A stretch of 64,000 nt of DNA from an uncultured Bacteroidota bacterium (GTDB lineage Bacteria > CLD3 > SB21): NCBI GenBank assembly GCA_964535295.1, contig CAZHUW010000001.1:677-64676 (forward strand), written 5' to 3'. A program made the translations under genes and the position numbers. Below the pieces are notes generated by a model. The model searched no databases. It was not told the DNA's origin and saw only the letters and a list, made by a program, of their open reading frames with translations. Of this stretch, positions 8,676-36,182 are shown piece after piece. The number at the start of each line of letters is the position of its first letter. Position 1 is the stretch's first letter.

Positions 8676-10484
8676 TTATTTGAATACCTTTATAATACCT
8701 TCTTTTATCGCCGTTGCTGCCTTTTTTTGAAATTTAGGATCAACGATCATCTTTTCCTGATCGGGCAGGGATAAAAAAGCGCATTCCACCAAAACAGCGG
8801 GCATTCGTGCATTGCGGCACACGGCCATATTGCCTTGAAAGATGCCGAAGTCAGGAAGTTTCGTTCGTTTGACCATCGCCTCTTGGATCGATTCCGCCAG
8901 CTTCTTGCTTTGCGGATGATAGTAGATCACTGACGGCCCCAACGCCTGGCTGAAGGGATTAACTCCGTCAGGCGGCGCATTGTGATGGATACTGATGAAA
9001 AGGTCGCACTGATTCCGGTTAGCAATTTCAACCCGATCATAAAGCGATAGATCCGCTGTTGTATCCGGATGCGTCATGATGACGGTCGCGCCGCCGGATT
9101 CAAGTTCTTTTTTCAAAACCAATGCAACTTCCACATTTGCCTGACGTTCCGTTATACCGCGTGGCCCTGTCGCTCCGATATCTTTAGAATGTCCGGGATC
9201 GATACAGATTTTTAAACCGCGCAACCCTTTAGCCAATGGTTTGTGCCGGATGGTCCAGATCAAATTAGTCCCGTCATACGCCGCCTCATATCCCCAATGA
9301 TGCGTGTTTTTTAAGTCTACCGTCAGCCGGAATACATCATGTTCCGGTTGAGACCATGTTACATTTGATATTTCCGGGTTGTCGTTTTCAAAACGAATCC
9401 AGTCAACATCGCTGATCCCGCCGTATAAAAACAACTGTAATTGCCGCTCGCCGGTTTGTTCGACTCTAAACGGGATCCGCTCCGACATGAATAACCTGAT
9501 AACGCTTTTCTGTCCATCCTTCTTTACGCGGATAACCGGTATAAATGAGCGGGGAACGGCCGTACCTGATGGAAGATAAGCAAGGTTCTTTTCGGGAAGC
9601 CAAGCCGCATGCCCGGATGATAATTTTAAGCGAATTTGATCGCCCATCGAACCGTCAACGGCGCTTCGGACTCCTTTTGGAAGAAAATAATAATAAGCCC
9701 TGCCCGGATCCACGGTCGCATTATTTATCTCAGCGGTCAATTCAACAGCGCGCATATCCTCATCGTTCCAAGATGTCAGTTTTGCATTCGAAACGGCCTG
9801 CGCGGTATCCCCGTTCTTTATGACTGTGAACCGAATCGAAGCGTTGTTCAGTTTTTCCTTCATGAAAAAATTTGCGGTAAATATGCCGGGAACCCGCGCG
9901 CGTTTGGTCTTTTTACCGATCCCAAATACCGATTCACCGAAATTATCCATCAGGTCCGGCTCGGCTTCCGCCATCGCCTGATCCGATTCAATGATAACCC
10001 CATCAGAATTTATAACAGAATAAAAAACCTTTGCTCCCGGCGTCGCGCGGCATTTTAGATGAATCCGGTCACCTGAACGCAAACTGATCGGAATGTTAGG
10101 AAAAAGATAATTTGAATCTATCGCAGCTGTCGCTGAGTCGAGCGCCGGCAAGGGGATTGGAATGATAACCTTTTTTTCGTACAAGTATACTGAGTCTTTA
10201 GCGATGATTTTACATTTCAATACAAAGGTTGAATCGGCGTTTATCTTCAACGGATCGATTCCCACAAAACCGATAAATGCACCGTCATGTGATGCTGCAA
10301 CGAACTGATCGTTGATATAGAGCTTTGAATTGGGAATACGGATCTGACCAAGAACGAGCAGGGAGTCTGTAGTGCTCAACAAAATATTCGAACGAGGATA
10401 GACCAGGCTTATTGGACGATCCTGCGCATACAATGAAAAGAGACCGACGGTGAAAATTAACCCCATCGGTATATATGTAGACAT
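8676..10484 (-). CDS. N-acetylmuramoyl-L-alanine amidase with a C-terminal Amidase_3 domain and a large N-terminal domain.
   Basis: The C-terminal region (KICIDPGHSKDIGATGP...SIHHNA) matches the Amidase_3 zinc-amidase fold. N-terminal signal/TM. Confidence 0.75.
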   Translation of the reverse strand: MSTYIPMGLIFTVGLFSLYAQDRPISLVYPRSNILLSTTDSLLVLGQIRIPNSKLYINDQFVAASHDGAFIGFVGIDPLKINADSTFVLKCKIIAKDSVYLYEKKVIIPIPLPALDSATAAIDSNYLFPNIPISLRSGDRIHLKCRATPGAKVFYSVINSDGVIIESDQAMAEAEPDLMDNFGESVFGIGKKTKRARVPGIFTANFFMKEKLNNASIRFTVIKNGDTAQAVSNAKLTSWNDEDMRAVELTAEINNATVDPGRAYYYFLPKGVRSAVDGSMGDQIRLKLSSGHAAWLPEKNLAYLPSGTAVPRSFIPVIRVKKDGQKSVIRLFMSERIPFRVEQTGERQLQLFLYGGISDVDWIRFENDNPEISNVTWSQPEHDVFRLTVDLKNTHHWGYEAAYDGTNLIWTIRHKPLAKGLRGLKICIDPGHSKDIGATGPRGITERQANVEVALVLKKELESGGATVIMTHPDTTADLSLYDRVEIANRNQCDLFISIHHNAPPDGVNPFSQALGPSVIYYHPQSKKLAESIQEAMVKRTKLPDFGIFQGNMAVCRNARMPAVLVECAFLSLPDQEKMIVDPKFQKKAATAIKEGIIKVFK

Positions 10485-10501
10485 TCGGTTCAGATGTTCT
10501 C

Positions 10502-11077
10502 CTAATTTCGTCGGCTCAGTAGGCTATTGACCCGGTGAAGGGATTCCTTGGCCGATTCGTATTCGGGATATAACTCCAGAGCCTTTTTGTATTCATTTGA
10601 TGCGCCCAGCCAATCCCCTTGCTTCTCTTTGATACGACCTAAATTAAAATAAGGATAATGCCTTGCTTCATAGCGTTTGGCTTCTTTGGCGCGCTCGAAC
10701 CATTGCGCGGCTTCGTCAAAGCGCTGAAGATTCATCAGATAAGCGCCGATATCGTTGTACGGGTTGCCGAAATCCGGATCTATAGAGATCGCCGTTTCAC
10801 ATTCTGAGATCGCGCCTTCAATATCGCCCTCGAAACTCAGCGCCCAACCAAGGAATGTATGCGCCTCGGACGTCGGAAATATTTCAATGGATCTTTTGTA
10901 ATGTTCGATCGCTTCATGAATCCGGCCGCTCATTTGAAATTGATACGCCTGATGGAAATAATATTCCGCTTCACGCAACAGCGCGCTGTCATTTTTTCTG
11001 AATGTTTCTTCAAACATGGATGTATCGGATCGGTAAAAATTCTTGGGAAATGTAGAAACAACGGCAGCCATTTTCAA
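10502..11077 (-). CDS. TPR-repeat protein.
   Basis: 191 aa of 34-residue repeats with the W-LG-Y / A-F-A-P spacing of TPR. Confidence 0.7.
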   Translation of the reverse strand: MKMAAVVSTFPKNFYRSDTSMFEETFRKNDSALLREAEYYFHQAYQFQMSGRIHEAIEHYKRSIEIFPTSEAHTFLGWALSFEGDIEGAISECETAISIDPDFGNPYNDIGAYLMNLQRFDEAAQWFERAKEAKRYEARHYPYFNLGRIKEKQGDWLGASNEYKKALELYPEYESAKESLHRVNSLLSRRN

Positions 11078-11136
11078 GACTATAAATGGACATCAGCGAC
11101 TGATGGCAGGATAGAGAGTTGGGTTTCCGTGATTAG

Positions 11137-11949
11137 TCACATCGCCGGCAGAATTGTTTTGATCAATACTTTCATGTTTTTCGGCATTTCCGGACGTCCT
11201 CCCATCAACATGCCGCCTGCAGGCATTCTTCCTCCCCCCATCCCGCCCGGTATCTGTCCGCCAAAATCCGGTTTTTTAAACTCACCCGTTTCCAACCAGA
11301 TACTGACCGGCTTCCCGGATGCCGCATTGATGGCAAAAGGAATATTATCAGAAGATCTCAAAGGAACTTTTAACTCGTAGAACATACCGTCTTTCTGATG
11401 AGTAAGTTTTACAGCAATGCCGGTCAATTCGTATAAGGTCAGTCTCGTCCGGTCTAATTCACCGGGACCAATGATCTCCACTTCATTTAATTGTTTTTTT
11501 GTTCTTTCGTCAAAATGTGCACCAATTTCCTGACGACCATCAGGAGGCAGCATTGGCATACCGCCGCTCCCTCCAATAGGATACCGTATACCTAGAATCT
11601 TGTTTCCAGTTCCGGCAGAATCAAACCACACCGTAAAACCCATGGTCAAGATCTGCATGGCAACGCTTCGGTCGAGCGGCGCAATACCCAAATAAATAAA
11701 ATCCTTGTCAGAGGCGATGCCAACGGCCATTTTTGCATCTCTAATGATTTCCATTTTATTCTTTTCCCATTCATCGTCCATTCCGTCTATCTTTATACTG
11801 CTTTCGTTCCAATAACTGATCATTGAGACAGGGTGAGAGCATCCTGTATTTAATTCAATTAACAGGACCAAGAATCCAAGAGCCACCGGCTTCGCTATTT
11901 TCATTGCCTTCTCCGCTTTTTTGATCAACAAAATCTGATCATTAGACAT
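11137..11949 (-). CDS. Hypothetical lipoprotein with a Gly/Met-rich C-terminal tail.
   Basis: Signal peptide with a lipobox-like LNTGC. C-terminal low-complexity GGQIPGGMGGGRMPAGGMLMGGRPEMP. Confidence 0.5.
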   Translation of the reverse strand: MSNDQILLIKKAEKAMKIAKPVALGFLVLLIELNTGCSHPVSMISYWNESSIKIDGMDDEWEKNKMEIIRDAKMAVGIASDKDFIYLGIAPLDRSVAMQILTMGFTVWFDSAGTGNKILGIRYPIGGSGGMPMLPPDGRQEIGAHFDERTKKQLNEVEIIGPGELDRTRLTLYELTGIAVKLTHQKDGMFYELKVPLRSSDNIPFAINAASGKPVSIWLETGEFKKPDFGGQIPGGMGGGRMPAGGMLMGGRPEMPKNMKVLIKTILPAM

Positions 11950-31561: not shown

Positions 31562-31903
31562 TTACTTTGTTTTTTTATCAGAAGGATAATCTTGCTGCAA
31601 TTTTTCAACGGCCAAGCCGTTCAGGAGACGCTCATCGACTTCAATTTCATCGACGATACCGATAACGGCCGCCTCGATGGATAATTCATTGGGTGTGTCG
31701 GTTATGGCACGCCGGGCTGCGTGCCCGTAGGAGCATATAACCAATTCCCCGATTCCGGCACCAAGCGTGTCCGCCACCACCACCACATTTGTATTCGGCG
31801 CTTTATCAATATTTACTGGATGAATCATGAGGAATCGGAGCGATTTGACATTATCCACTTTTTTTGTGGCCCAAACCGTTCCAACAACGCGTCCGATGAA
31901 CAT
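31562..31903 (-). CDS. EutN/CcmL/PduN-family bacterial-microcompartment vertex (BMC-P) protein homolog. Solitary within this window.
   Basis: 113 aa. GTVWATKKVDNVKSLRFLMIH...VVADTLGAGIGELVICSYGHAARRA...IEAAVIGIVDEI aligns block-for-block with CcmL/EutN. ~20-residue charged C-terminal extension. Confidence 0.75.
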   Translation of the reverse strand: MFIGRVVGTVWATKKVDNVKSLRFLMIHPVNIDKAPNTNVVVVADTLGAGIGELVICSYGHAARRAITDTPNELSIEAAVIGIVDEIEVDERLLNGLAVEKLQQDYPSDKKTK

Positions 31904-31921: not shown

Positions 31922-33427
31922 TTAAAAAATAATCATATAAACGGCCAAGCCTCCCGCCAGTCCACAAACCATATTGACCCGGTCATTATGAAAAAACTCC
32001 CAGCCGCGTATCAGCGTCGTGACCTTTTCGCAGTGTATCCTGCGCTCGGTCACTTTACCGCAAAGATCACATATATATTGCGACTGAAGGGTTGCTCCCA
32101 GCATGCTGTCAACAAGGCTCCCGATGACTCCTGACAAGATAATCCAAAAAAAACTCATCTCCAACGAACTTTTCAAAAATAACTCCGGATTGACCAGATA
32201 ACCGCTGACAGCAACACAAAACGCGCCGGCCGCCCCCCCTAATGTACCCAATAGCGAGACGCCTCCCGAAGTGCCCGGCGCCACTTTTTTCAATGTTAGA
32301 ATACTCCTGGGAGTCGATTTAAAAAATACGCCGATCTCGGTAGCCCACGTATCGCTTGTTACGGCTGCTAAAATACCCAAAAAGACCGGATACCAGTTGG
32401 GATGCGGAAAATAGAAGGCCCCGATGATTATGATACCAGCAAGCCCGCCGTTGGCAATGACCTGTGCAGCATCACGTGTACTGCCCTTTTCAAAAACGAG
32501 ATCGAATTTCTTCTTGCGCCGTTTTCCCATCTTGGACAGAAGGCTCGACGTTACAAAAAAAGTCATGATCGGCGCCGCCCAAACCCAACCCCCCAAGCCA
32601 AATATCAATGTTCCCAAAAGAAAGGCTGTTACAGCGCCTCCGGCATTGAGAAAACGGAAGTAATGAGATAAAATTGAAACCACCAGTGACAACAAACTTC
32701 CAAATGCGAATTGAAAGGCCGCAGAATCGGGAAAATTGGTCATGACCTGAACGGTGAATGCAACGCCGAGCGGTATGGTCATATTATCGGATCCTTTAGC
32801 GGAAACAGCCTCCGCAGCCGTTGCAACCAATGAGCCTGTAAAGGCCGTCAGCAACGCCAGTTCCCATGACCACGTTAGAAACTCCCAGCGGTCAAGAAAA
32901 TAAAACGAGATCAAGATCACGCCGAAAGAGACCACCAACATCCCGGCTGATCCTTCGAGACTTTTATTATCGCCAGTCAAATTGTAGTTGTGCGGATGCG
33001 TGAAACGGGTACCAATAAGTGCCGCTGATGCATCGCCGACAGCCAAAACCAGCATTGCCGTCATGAGAGCGGGTTTGTTGCTTTCCCAACATAAGAACGT
33101 AAGAAGCGTAAAAGCAAGAGGATACCAAGCTGTGCCATACGTCAGGCGCCCTGTTCCGTGCATGCCTTTCAGCCAATGAAACCGGACCGCCAAATAATCA
33201 AAAACGGTAAAAAAGGTCCCGAGTATTACGGCGGGCATTTTAGAAGTTAAAAAAAGCGGGGATACGAAAACCAGAAGCCCCGTTCCCACGTGCGTGATCT
33301 TTCTGGTGATCTCTCCGCTCCAATGAAAATGGCGGCGGATCAATTCAACCGACGTCAACAAGGTTCCGAGAATAAAAAAAGCGGAGAAACCGTAGTACCA
33401 ATCCTGTGGCAAGTTAAGATCGTTCAT
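31922..33427 (-). CDS. Integral-membrane fusion: N-terminal CTP-dependent polyprenol kinase-like domain (dolichol kinase / phytol kinase VTE5 family) plus C-terminal DUF92/COG1836 (TMEM19/VTE6-like) domain.
   Basis: The N-terminal half carries RKITHVGTG, LAVGDASAALIG and KSLEGSAGM, the polyprenol-kinase hallmarks. The C-terminal half is a Gly-rich polytopic region typical of DUF92. Confidence 0.55.
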   Translation of the reverse strand: MNDLNLPQDWYYGFSAFFILGTLLTSVELIRRHFHWSGEITRKITHVGTGLLVFVSPLFLTSKMPAVILGTFFTVFDYLAVRFHWLKGMHGTGRLTYGTAWYPLAFTLLTFLCWESNKPALMTAMLVLAVGDASAALIGTRFTHPHNYNLTGDNKSLEGSAGMLVVSFGVILISFYFLDRWEFLTWSWELALLTAFTGSLVATAAEAVSAKGSDNMTIPLGVAFTVQVMTNFPDSAAFQFAFGSLLSLVVSILSHYFRFLNAGGAVTAFLLGTLIFGLGGWVWAAPIMTFFVTSSLLSKMGKRRKKKFDLVFEKGSTRDAAQVIANGGLAGIIIIGAFYFPHPNWYPVFLGILAAVTSDTWATEIGVFFKSTPRSILTLKKVAPGTSGGVSLLGTLGGAAGAFCVAVSGYLVNPELFLKSSLEMSFFWIILSGVIGSLVDSMLGATLQSQYICDLCGKVTERRIHCEKVTTLIRGWEFFHNDRVNMVCGLAGGLAVYMIIF

Positions 33428-33430
33428 CGA

Positions 33431-33661
33431 CTATACGGCGGAATGGGCCGATTGTTTGTTGCGTTCCGAAGCACGGGATTTGAGAGGTACTCCGTCATTG
33501 GACAGCACTTCGAAGGGACAAATTTCTACGCAAAAATTACATTCTGTGCAACTGGCGTGAATGACGCTCAGGCGAACTTCAGTCAGCTCCATCGCATCGA
33601 AAGGACATACGCCGACGCAGGCGCCGCAGAGATCACATTTATCGTAATTGATCTGGATCAT
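33431..33661 (-). CDS. 2x[4Fe-4S] ferredoxin.
   Basis: Two CxxCxxCxxxCP motifs (CDLCGACVGVCP and CTECNFCVEICP) in 76 aa. Confidence 0.85.
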   Translation of the reverse strand: MIQINYDKCDLCGACVGVCPFDAMELTEVRLSVIHASCTECNFCVEICPFEVLSNDGVPLKSRASERNKQSAHSAV

Positions 33662-33669
33662 AATAAAAC

Positions 33670-34809
33670 TTACACTTTGTCGAGGGCATTTTTGATATCA
33701 CTGATCAAATCTTCCGCATCCTCGCATCCGACGGAGAGACGGACCAGTCCGTCCGTCAGGTTTAGTTTTAACCGGTCTTCGAGCGGAACGGAACCGTGTG
33801 TCATACTCGCCGGGTGACAGATGAGGCTTTCCACTCCACCTAAGCTTTCAGCTAAAGCGAATATCTTAACATGGCGCAGTAAATTCTTTCCGTTCTCCAG
33901 CGATCCCAATTCGATCGAGATCATACCGCCGAATCCGCTCATTTGTTTTTTGGCAAGTTCATGCTGCGGATGCGAAGCGAGGCCGGGATAATATACTTTC
34001 TTAACTTTATTGTGCCCATTCAGGAAATTGGCCATCTGTATGGCATTCTCATTATGCTGGCGCATGCGCAGGGCCAGGGTTTTAGTGGAGCGCATCACGA
34101 GCCAACAGTCGAACGGCGAAGGCACACCGCCGATCGCGTTCTGCAGAAAGCGCAATTTTTCATGAAGATCCTGTCCGCTAGTAACAATGATCCCTCCGAT
34201 GACGTCGCTGTGGCCGTTGATATACTTCGTCGTGCTGTGCAATACGATATCGATGCCGAATTCCAACGGACGCTGAAAATAAGGGCTCATGAAAGTATTG
34301 TCTACAACGGTAATGAATTTATGTTTTTTACCAATTTCCGTCACGGCATTGAGGTCCGTGATGGTCAGCATCGGATTGGTCGGCGTTTCGACGTAGATCA
34401 TTTTTGTTTCTTTGGTGATCGCCGCCTTAATATTTTTCATATCCGACGTATCCACCCAAGAAAAGGTCAGGCCGTAGCGGCGCATGATCTTATCAAAAAA
34501 ACGGAACGTGCCGCCGTACACATTATCGGATACGATCACATGGTCGCCGGCGCTCAATAATCCCGCAACCGCCTGAATGGCCGACATACCGCTGGAGAAT
34601 GCAAGACCGAATTTGCCTTTCTCAAGCGCGGCGATATTATTTTCAAGCGCGACACGGGTCGGGTTAATCGTTCGTCCGTAGTCAAAACCCTTGCTGACGC
34701 CCAATTCCTCCTGAGCGTACGTAGAGGTCTGGTAGATCGGTGTGATGACGGCGCCGGTTGTTGGATCGGCTGTCTGGCCTGCGTGAATCGAATCTGTCAA
34801 AAAACCCAT
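33670..34809 (-). CDS. PLP-dependent transsulfuration enzyme (cystathionine gamma-lyase / gamma-synthase / methionine gamma-lyase family).
   Basis: 379 aa, Cys/Met-metabolism PLP fold. Lys-containing STTKYINGHSD motif. Sits next to cystathionine beta-synthase, so probably the gamma-lyase of reverse transsulfuration. Confidence 0.8.
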   Translation of the reverse strand: MGFLTDSIHAGQTADPTTGAVITPIYQTSTYAQEELGVSKGFDYGRTINPTRVALENNIAALEKGKFGLAFSSGMSAIQAVAGLLSAGDHVIVSDNVYGGTFRFFDKIMRRYGLTFSWVDTSDMKNIKAAITKETKMIYVETPTNPMLTITDLNAVTEIGKKHKFITVVDNTFMSPYFQRPLEFGIDIVLHSTTKYINGHSDVIGGIIVTSGQDLHEKLRFLQNAIGGVPSPFDCWLVMRSTKTLALRMRQHNENAIQMANFLNGHNKVKKVYYPGLASHPQHELAKKQMSGFGGMISIELGSLENGKNLLRHVKIFALAESLGGVESLICHPASMTHGSVPLEDRLKLNLTDGLVRLSVGCEDAEDLISDIKNALDKV

Positions 34810-34835
34810 TTTTTCAATTTCCTTTTGATAAATAA

Positions 34836-36182
34836 TTATTTTCCTGCCAAATAATCCAGAAGGTCGATGCGTGTCATGATACTGATCGGCTTACGTTGTT
34901 CGTCCACCACAACCACCGCCCCGCTCTGACGAAATATTTCCTGCAGGGTCGAGATCGGTGTATTCGGCCCGACCATCGGCACCTGGCGGTTCATGCATTT
35001 TGAAATGAGAGCCGCGCTTTGGCCTGCGCCTGAACTCAAATATTCGATGAGATCGGATTCCGAAACAATACCTACCAGCACGCCGCCGGACGTAACGGGT
35101 AATTGGGAGATCCCTTTTTGACGCATAACGGCAATCACATTCTGCACGGTCTGCATATCATCGGAACAGACCAACTGCGGACGCTGGGACTGATCGAGGA
35201 TATCTTTGACCTTTCCCTGAATAGGTTTCGTTTCAAAGAATTTATTCTCGCGCATCCACTTGTCGTCCACGAACTTGGTCATATAATTACGCACGCCGTC
35301 GGGCAAAACCACAATACAATTCTGTCCCTCTTTCAATTTCGGCGCCTTCTGCAGAGCCGCGAATAAAGCCGATCCGCTGGAACCGCCGACAAGCAATCCT
35401 TCTTCGCGTATCAGGCGTCGCGATAATAAGAACGACGGCTGGTCCTCCGTTTTGACCCATTCATCGATCAGTGACCTGTCAAGCACATCCGGAACAAAAT
35501 CATACCCGATGCCTTCAACTTTGTAAGTTCCGACATCCGTTCCTCCGCCGAGGATCGAACCTACCGGATCCGCGCCGACCACGATACATTTAGGATTATG
35601 TTCTTTCAATCTCTTTGCTACTCCAGTGATCGAACCGCCGGTGCCGGCGCCCATCACGACCATGTCGATCTTCCCGTTAAGATCCTCGATCATTTCCCGC
35701 GCCGTTTCATTGTAATGAACGTTCGGGTTGTTAGGGTTGGAATATTGATCCAGAATATGCGCATTGGGCAGTTCTGACTGCAGGCGCCGCGCCACGCTGA
35801 TATGGCTTTCCGGAGAATCAAACGACGCTTCCGTCGGGGTTCGGATGATCTCCGCGCCTAAAGCTTCGAGTACAACTTGTTTTTCACGGCTCATTTTTTC
35901 CGGCATCGTAATGATCACGCGGTAGCCGCGAACAGCACCCGCTAAAGCTATTCCGATACCGGTATTGCCGCTGGTCGGTTCGATCAACGTATCGCCCGGT
36001 TTGATTCGGCCCTCGCGTTCCGCGGCTTCGACCATGGATTTGCCGATGCGGTCTTTGAGTGAACCGCCGGGATTAAGGAATTCACATTTGGCATATAGAT
36101 TACAGGCCAGATGTGCGCCAACCCGGTTCAGTTTGACTAGCGGCGTTCGCCCGATAACTTCGATAATGTTATTAAACTTCAT
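34836..36182 (-). CDS. Cystathionine beta-synthase-like protein: CysK/CysM-type PLP domain with a C-terminal CBS-domain pair.
   Basis: N-terminus KLNRV...PGGSLKDRIG...SGNTGIGIALAG (PLP fold type II) followed by two CBS motifs. 448 aa. Confidence 0.8.
   Translation of the reverse strand: MKFNNIIEVIGRTPLVKLNRVGAHLACNLYAKCEFLNPGGSLKDRIGKSMVEAAEREGRIKPGDTLIEPTSGNTGIGIALAGAVRGYRVIITMPEKMSREKQVVLEALGAEIIRTPTEASFDSPESHISVARRLQSELPNAHILDQYSNPNNPNVHYNETAREMIEDLNGKIDMVVMGAGTGGSITGVAKRLKEHNPKCIVVGADPVGSILGGGTDVGTYKVEGIGYDFVPDVLDRSLIDEWVKTEDQPSFLLSRRLIREEGLLVGGSSGSALFAALQKAPKLKEGQNCIVVLPDGVRNYMTKFVDDKWMRENKFFETKPIQGKVKDILDQSQRPQLVCSDDMQTVQNVIAVMRQKGISQLPVTSGGVLVGIVSESDLIEYLSSGAGQSAALISKCMNRQVPMVGPNTPISTLQEIFRQSGAVVVVDEQRKPISIMTRIDLLDYLAGK

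Follow-up and report, generated by a model that had tools for sequence, protein, structure and literature searches.

Can a single bacterial gene carry an isoprenoid alcohol through both of the phosphorylations that lead to its diphosphate? The question is raised by one gene in a 64,000-nucleotide stretch of DNA from an uncultured Bacteroidota bacterium (assembly GCA_964535295.1, contig CAZHUW010000001.1, positions 677 to 64,676 of the forward strand), the whole of which we call the window. The original prediction, made from the letters of the window alone, took the product of this gene to be a fusion of a polyprenol kinase, of the type of the phytol kinase VTE5 and dolichol kinase, with a DUF92 domain like that of VTE6. 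In plants, the two phosphorylations are carried out by VTE5 and then by VTE6 (PMC5694494; PMC5745509; PMC9782597). COG1836, the group of At1g78620, had been predicted by plant-prokaryote comparative genomics to act in phytyl-phosphate metabolism (PMC3223725), and At1g78620 was later shown to be the phytyl-phosphate kinase VTE6 (PMC9782597; PMC5745509). Our analysis suggests that the fused protein is probably a bifunctional kinase, which would convert an isoprenoid alcohol first to its monophosphate and then to its diphosphate, this being the most economical reading of the identities of its two domains.

The gene was analysed as the following open reading frame (ORF).

31922..33427, minus strand: the whole fused ORF, 501 residues with about 16 predicted helices, as seen in the ORF list, the AlphaFold2 model and full-length homologs.

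In the ORF list it forms one uninterrupted frame of 501 codons from ATG to stop; a hidden frameshift or stop codon was looked for and none was found, so that the predicted single intact ORF was borne out. Three other 501-residue copies, each from an independent assembly, fall within the 90%-identity cluster of the protein. Homologs of the window protein number in the hundreds in a database search; of the best 120, nearly all were about 500 residues long with more than 91% query coverage, and 117 homologs of 480-535 residues were retrieved, most of them again with a coverage above 91%. Because of these independent copies, the full-length homologs and the 76 loci of other genomes in which both halves lie within one ORF (see below), the fusion is genuine, and a frameshift or assembly artefact is ruled out. 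Conservation was analysed in an alignment of 98 sequences, comprising the window protein and 97 homologs, whose median identity to the window protein was 39% in the N-terminal half and 49% in the C-terminal half. Dozens of polar residues were invariant over both halves in this alignment, and both halves are thus under constraint across the 97 homologs.

The C-terminal half contains these features.

31952..32692, minus strand: DUF92 domain (PF01940 / COG1836, VTE6/TMEM19 family), residues 246-492, Pfam E=6.1e-67.
32462..32548, minus strand: S294-S295-L-L-S298-K with a K/R-rich loop (residues 301-319); invariant columns include K314, R318 and Q322.
32330..32356, minus strand: acidic motif S-D359-T-W361-A-T363-E364-I-G366; D359, W361, T363, E364 and G366 invariant in the 98 sequences.
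32030..32071, minus strand: C453-x2-C456-x8-H465-C466 cluster in a beta-hairpin loop; every position kept in 94/98.

That this half belongs to DUF92 had been put forward as a point on which the fusion could fail; PF01940 matched it with 226 bits, against a cutoff of 27.5, over positions 2-250 of the 251 in the model. The SDTWATEIG motif is a candidate catalytic or metal site, as judged by its conservation, and the loop at residues 301-319 holds eight K/R residues. The Cys/His cluster, bracketed in the predicted structure by strands 450-452 and 471-474, may form a Zn site on the cytoplasmic face. It is also present in the stand-alone DUF92 proteins of two further loci (L083 and L084) and in the split form (L067), which are described below.

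Assignment of the N-terminal half was less direct, since the Pfam scan proposed in the original prediction recovered DUF92 and no kinase or CTP_transf_1 model on this half (CTP, cytidine triphosphate). Its features are as follows.

32729..33427, minus strand: N-terminal domain, residues 1-233, putative COG0170-type (VTE5/SEC59/PolK-like) prenol kinase of 8 helices, from phmmer, hhalign and profile searches.
33290..33304, minus strand: RKITH (R42-K43-I-T-H46), putative 'charged clamp' motif for the CTP phosphates; R42 and H46 invariant, K43 in 93/98.
33011..33037, minus strand: G-D132-A-S-A135-A-L-I-G139, residues 131-139; D132 and G139 invariant, A135 in 97/98, invariant in the stand-alone kinases too.
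32948..32965, minus strand: K155-S-L-E-G159-S160, residues 155-160; K155 and G159 invariant, residue 158 being E in 71/98 and Q in 27/98.
32783..32812, minus strand: E206...G212-S-D214-N215; all four numbered residues invariant in the 98 fusion proteins and in the stand-alone kinases.

A phmmer search with the N-terminal half alone recovered stand-alone proteins of 200-260 residues (E 1e-9 to 1e-17), which carry the automatic JGI names 'phytol kinase' or 'dolichol kinase'. Three such stand-alone homologs (P0133, P0135 and P0136) exceeded the gathering score of PF01148 (CTP_transf_1), marginally, at 24-29 bits against a cutoff of 24. The profile of 117 N-terminal halves aligned with the stand-alone proteins in hhalign at E=5e-54 over 211 columns, and a search with the kinase-domain profile added hundreds more stand-alone relatives, named phytol kinase, dolichol kinase, 'diacylglycerol/polyprenol kinase family protein' and, in some NCBI records, phosphatidate cytidylyltransferase. 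In the joint alignment of N-terminal halves and stand-alone proteins R42, K43, H46, G98, D132, A135, G139, K155, G159, S160, E206, G212, D214, N215 and P219 were invariant or nearly so, and the complete motif set of COG0170 kinases (R-K-x-x-H, G-D-x-x-A-x-x-x-G, K-[ST]-x-E-G and D-N) was present and (near-)invariant. The RKxxH, VGDASAAxIG and KSxEG motifs named in the original prediction were thereby located at residues 42-46 (RKITH), 131-139 (GDASAALIG) and 155-160 (KSLEGS). The R-K-x-x-H element has the spacing of Arg29/Lys30/His33 in the Plasmodium prenol kinase PfPolK, which have been proposed to hold the phosphates of CTP as a 'charged clamp' (PMC10849223). On the strength of the stand-alone homologs, the PF01148 passes, the hhalign result and the shared invariant residues, we assign the N-terminal half to the SEC59/VTE5-type branch of putatively CTP-dependent prenol kinases; the kinase call of the original prediction is thus supported by transitive homology, motifs and fold, and not by a direct match to a family model.

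AlphaFold2, run on the 98-sequence alignment, gave a full-length model of about 16 helices with a mean predicted local distance difference test score (pLDDT) of 89.9 and a predicted template modelling score (pTM) of 0.89, in which the two halves meet at a two-residue turn in a continuous helix-turn-helix; a model of DUF92 alone reached a pLDDT of 93.8. For the full model, as for the DUF92 half taken by itself, the best natural structural matches were CdsA (PDB 4Q2E) and CarS (PDB 5GUF), with modest scores, and the N-terminal half displayed a polytopic membrane fold related to that of CdsA. Sequence searches of the PDB gave no meaningful match, whether they started from the protein itself, from the fusion profile or from the profile of the kinase domain, and an hhalign comparison of the N-terminal half with the C-terminal half was not significant (probability 0.7%). 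The models hint that DUF92 shares the fold of membrane enzymes that use CTP, which would be compatible with a nucleotide-dependent kinase. The conserved motifs of both halves all lie on one K/R-rich face, presumably the cytoplasmic one, as judged crudely from the number of helices and the K/R content of the loops.

The distribution of the fusion was assessed by a species-level scan using one genome per GTDB species, the best 80 loci of which are numbered L005-L084. Relatives were found in at least 590 species-representative genomes, and both halves lay within one ORF at 76 of the best 80 loci; the remainder comprised one split form (L067) and three loci with DUF92 but no recognisable kinase half (L082, L083 and L084). 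The matches listed came from Bacteroidota, Ignavibacteriota, KSB1, Kryptoniota, Calditrichota, Marinimicrobia/Neomarinimicrobiota, Fidelibacterota and Chloroflexota, as well as from the heliobacterium Heliophilum fasciatum DSM 11170 and the myxobacterium Archangium lansingense, and the hosts were mostly without a phototroph label. The survey of fused and split forms called for by the original prediction thus found the fused form to dominate, with a single adjacent split pair, and a large bacterial clade, spanning hundreds of genomes, has the fusion as its standard form. The domain calls of the original prediction were therefore correct, but its description of the gene as rare direct fusion evidence was wrong and overstated its rarity, as fusions of this type are already widespread in bacteria across many phyla. 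As the kinase half is missed by Pfam and NCBIfam, databases label the fused proteins simply 'DUF92 domain-containing protein', an annotation gap that extends over the whole group.

One locus, L049 (contig CALRIY020000034.1), comes from a metagenome-assembled genome (MAG) labelled 'Synechococcus sp. UW140'. Its fusion gene has holA upstream, a synteny of the type seen in loci labelled Ignavibacteriota or Bacteroidota, and the contig may be mis-binned.

In the proposed scheme, the N-terminal 8-helix domain, as a member of the SEC59/VTE5/FOLK/PolK family, would act as a CTP-dependent prenol kinase yielding a prenyl monophosphate, to which the DUF92 domain, of the family of plant VTE6, would add a second phosphate, giving the prenyl diphosphate that is the substrate form of prenyltransferases. 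The invariant polar residues of both halves would be placed on a shared K/R-rich, presumably cytoplasmic face, where CTP is supplied, and fusion would hold the two activities at a 1:1 ratio and lessen the escape of the monophosphate intermediate, which might in this way be channelled between the halves. The role envisaged is the recycling of farnesol, geranylgeraniol or similar alcohols, endogenous or scavenged, rather than of phytol specifically. Phytol is an unlikely general substrate because most hosts are not labelled as phototrophs, and farnesol, geranylgeraniol or related alcohols are more likely, since the gene behaves like a housekeeping one in many lineages, most of them non-phototrophic.

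The gene neighbourhood bears on the same question. The neighbours of the fusion gene in the window are the following.

33431-36182, minus strand: upstream block of a ferredoxin, a cystathionine gamma-lyase type and a cystathionine beta-synthase type gene.
31562-31903, minus strand: lone EutN/CcmL-family gene, pentameric microcompartment vertex protein (PF03319, E=2e-24).

The 76-residue 2x[4Fe-4S] ferredoxin lies directly upstream across a 3-nucleotide gap, and beyond it a Cys/Met-metabolism pyridoxal-phosphate enzyme (cystathionine gamma-lyase type) and a PALP+CBS-domain protein (cystathionine beta-synthase type) form a transsulfuration pair. The EutN/CcmL gene lies next on the downstream side, 18 nucleotides from the fusion gene, and overlaps the start annotated for an Omp85 ORF. 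It keeps its position in the closest relatives (L001, L002, L005 and L021), and the window showed no further microcompartment genes, whether for shell hexamers or for other components. An Omp85/POTRA protein and then a VanZ-like protein follow downstream. A 51%-identical homolog has mostly the same gene order, with an outer-membrane beta-barrel gene in the place of the ferredoxin. An Rfam scan of the window found one tRNA and nothing else, and Pfam analysis of about 37 ORFs of the window revealed no isoprenoid, quinone or pigment gene. When 1158 ORFs from 84 loci and the window region were clustered, the recurrent neighbours included enolase, immediately downstream in 14 loci, holA, immediately upstream in about 10, and FtsB, FtsK, LolA and PPIase; in Marinimicrobia loci, hutU and hutI recurred on the opposite strand. 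The loci of Heliophilum, Archangium and Chloroflexia, the first and last of these from phototrophs, had no photosynthesis or isoprenoid genes nearby. The neighbours of the homologs are thus lineage-specific housekeeping genes, and the original suggestion that the locus points to a phytol, geranylgeraniol or farnesol salvage route here found no support in its surroundings.

Two contexts were suggestive, and these were the only ones. BacA/UppP (undecaprenyl-diphosphatase; PF02673, E=1e-79) lies upstream of the fusion or DUF92 gene in nine loci of Ignavibacteriota, Kryptoniota and Bacteroidota type (L008, L013, L015, L019, L030, L039, L041, L053 and L083), on the same strand and 2-5 genes away in seven of the nine, and farther off on the opposite strand in two, inside a larger FtsK-LolA-...-PPIase-holA synteny block. 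The other context was found in one Latescibacterota genome.

8982-10801 of locus L084: UbiA-family prenyltransferase (PF01040, E=1e-38) followed by a stand-alone 276-residue DUF92 gene.

Here the UbiA gene ends 3 nucleotides ahead of the DUF92 gene, a pairing suggestive of a link between DUF92 and an enzyme that consumes prenyl diphosphates.

Loci that depart from the fused architecture were also analysed. Both L083 and L084 encode stand-alone DUF92 genes, and the others are listed here.

9932-11500 of locus L067: Anaerolineales MAG, kinase and DUF92 halves in the same frame, separated by one TAA and about 28 codons.
9569-10867 of locus L082: Calditrichaceae, 432-residue DUF92 protein with a degenerate N-terminal region.

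The first could be a genuinely split gene pair, or it could have arisen by a recent nonsense mutation or by an error in sequencing. In the second, the N-terminal membrane region of about 170 residues lacks every kinase motif and is matched by no Pfam model; it is apparently a kinase half that has decayed, the converse of a class with a degenerate DUF92. That class makes up 27 of the 118 matches to the kinase-domain profile, as proteins of 356-613 residues, mostly 420-475 (for example P0159-P0169 and P0195), with Acidobacteriota and Pirellulaceae among the hosts. Their C-terminal extension was recognised neither by Pfam nor by a purpose-built DUF92 hidden Markov model; hhalign identified it as a degenerate DUF92 (probability 87%, E=4e-6, 143 columns) that has none of the SSLLSK, ANGG and SDTWATEIG motifs, and judging by its sequence it looks like a decayed second domain.

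With these data the alternatives to a two-step kinase could be weighed. The N-terminal half might instead be a polyprenol kinase whose task is to regenerate the monophosphate of a carrier lipid, undecaprenyl or another long chain, for envelope glycans, with DUF92 contributing lipid binding or flipping, cytidine diphosphate activation or phosphatase-type chemistry. Envelope genes do occur near the fusion, namely Omp85/BamA-like, VanZ and FtsY in the window and L001, and KdsA, KdsD, LptC, LptA and LptB in L004, as does BacA/UppP, which in about seven Ignavibacteriota-type loci lies 2-5 genes upstream; these neighbourhoods, however, are lineage-specific synteny shared with unrelated housekeeping genes (holA, enolase, FtsK and PPIase). 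Similarly, the structure of DUF92 is as close to the cytidylyltransferases CarS and CdsA as to anything, and functional tests of the family have been confined to plants, yet the single characterised DUF92 protein is a prenyl-monophosphate kinase, and the adjacency of UbiA and DUF92 in L084 suits a diphosphate product. A carrier kinase would, moreover, find the second domain superfluous, whereas its polar residues are invariant. We therefore consider a carrier-lipid role unlikely, although of the alternatives it retains the most weight. That the N-terminal half is a CTP:lipid cytidylyltransferase like CdsA or CarS, and not a kinase, is improbable. CdsA is the top structural match, some NCBI records of homologs read phosphatidate cytidylyltransferase, and stand-alone homologs match PF01148; but those PF01148 scores are marginal, as mentioned above, JGI names the proteins phytol or dolichol kinase, one NCBI name is 'diacylglycerol/polyprenol kinase family', and the RKxxH, GDxxAxxxG, KSxEG and DN motifs are those of the kinase branch. 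Nor was there a match to the CdsA signature PS01315, which we take to be S-x-[LIVMF]-K-R-x4-K-D-...-H-G-G-x-x-D-R-x-D, and the HGG and DRxD elements occur nowhere in the protein.

A slightly less remote chance attaches to the idea that just one half is catalytic and the other survives as a remnant with a structural or regulatory part to play. Such remnants have counterparts in the class of 420-475 residues, which joins a kinase to a DUF92 devoid of its motifs, and in L082, whose DUF92 is preceded by a degenerate N-terminal region; these decayed forms, however, are separate clades, and the window protein and its 97 homologs keep all the invariant polar residues in both halves. As to a frameshift or misassembly joining adjacent genes, the halves of L067, separated by a single in-frame TAA, show that split forms or errors do occur, but the 501-residue products of independent assemblies, the predominance of fused loci across many phyla and the continuous helix-turn-helix at the junction in a model of pTM 0.89 leave this explanation refuted by the present data. 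The two-step kinase is thus preferred, and several points weigh against it in turn. Residues 1-236 match no Pfam or NCBIfam model, even at E<=10, and six stand-alone kinase homologs scanned with NCBIfam matched none either. The DUF92 half scores 123.8 bits with TIGR00297, below the equivalog cutoff of 205.85, and is therefore a clear DUF92 member of a diverged subfamily, although JGI calls fusion homologs 'TIGR00297 family'. The activities of every fused protein are assigned by homology, the 'second kinase' role of DUF92 would be carried over by analogy from one protein, plant VTE6, and the homologs have no conserved isoprenoid-gene neighbourhood, no neighbour family occurring in more than 15 loci.

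A broader view can be tentatively envisaged, which we regard as possible and on balance doubtful. DUF92 might be a very divergent form of the CTP-binding fold of CdsA, CarS and dolichol kinase, and the fusion a tandem of anciently related CTP-using domains whose cytoplasmic active sites, side by side, would pass prenol to prenyl phosphate and on to prenyl diphosphate, as a widespread, ancestral-type housekeeping recycler of non-phytol prenols in non-phototrophs. If this were true, DUF92/TMEM19 would become the prime candidate for the missing prenyl-phosphate kinase of animals and other organisms.

To our knowledge, genetics has so far identified only a handful of prenol kinases and a single prenyl-phosphate kinase, VTE6 of plants. 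In recent reviews the kinases by which animals and most other organisms would salvage farnesol and geranylgeraniol are still described as 'missing' (PMC9782597, PMC13022625). The widespread fusion provides solid guilt-by-association evidence that DUF92 takes the step immediately following a prenol kinase. The fused gene is in addition a convenient single-gene system, with Heliophilum fasciatum and Archangium lansingense among the cultured hosts, which could establish the chemistry, nucleotide donor and chain-length preference of DUF92, and possibly a one-gene module for channelling prenols into the prenyl-diphosphate pools of engineered strains. The earlier placing of COG1836 in phytyl-phosphate metabolism reportedly drew on prokaryotic gene clustering, and possibly on fusions with phytol-kinase genes. 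Our literature search, which did not extend to the original reports of vom Dorp 2015 and Seaver 2014, returned no mention of a VTE5-COG1836 fusion and no link of TMEM19 to prenyl-phosphate kinases.

Compared with known systems, the N-terminal half resembles VTE5, FOLK, SEC59/DOLK and PfPolK (COG0170) in its approximately 8 transmembrane helices, its R-K-x-x-H, GDxxAxxxG, K-S/T-x-E-G and D-N motifs and its CdsA-like fold, and is homologous to bacterial proteins automatically named after these kinases. It differs from them in being unrecognised by PF01148 and NCBIfam, in being joined to a second domain and in its mostly non-phototrophic hosts. CdsA (CDP-diacylglycerol synthase) and CarS (CDP-archaeol synthase), the top structural matches, both work in the membrane and bind CTP on its cytoplasmic side; in contrast, the fusion has no detectable sequence similarity to them, does not carry the CdsA signature and would be expected to transfer a phosphoryl group and not cytidine monophosphate. 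Two sequential activities, GGK and GGPK, were described in a non-photosynthetic prokaryote in a 1996 study, as cited in the review PMC9385802, and these are the same two steps as proposed for the fusion; there, however, they are two separate activities, for which the review cites just that activity study and gives no gene names. The C-terminal half shares PF01940 membership with VTE6 (At1g78620), the cyanobacterial alr1612 group and animal TMEM19, although it falls below the TIGR00297 cutoff, and this genome region has no link to chlorophyll or tocopherol metabolism. The enzyme logic is nonetheless that of plant phytol salvage, in which a VTE5-type enzyme is followed by a VTE6-type enzyme, and the fusion would bring the two together in one polypeptide.

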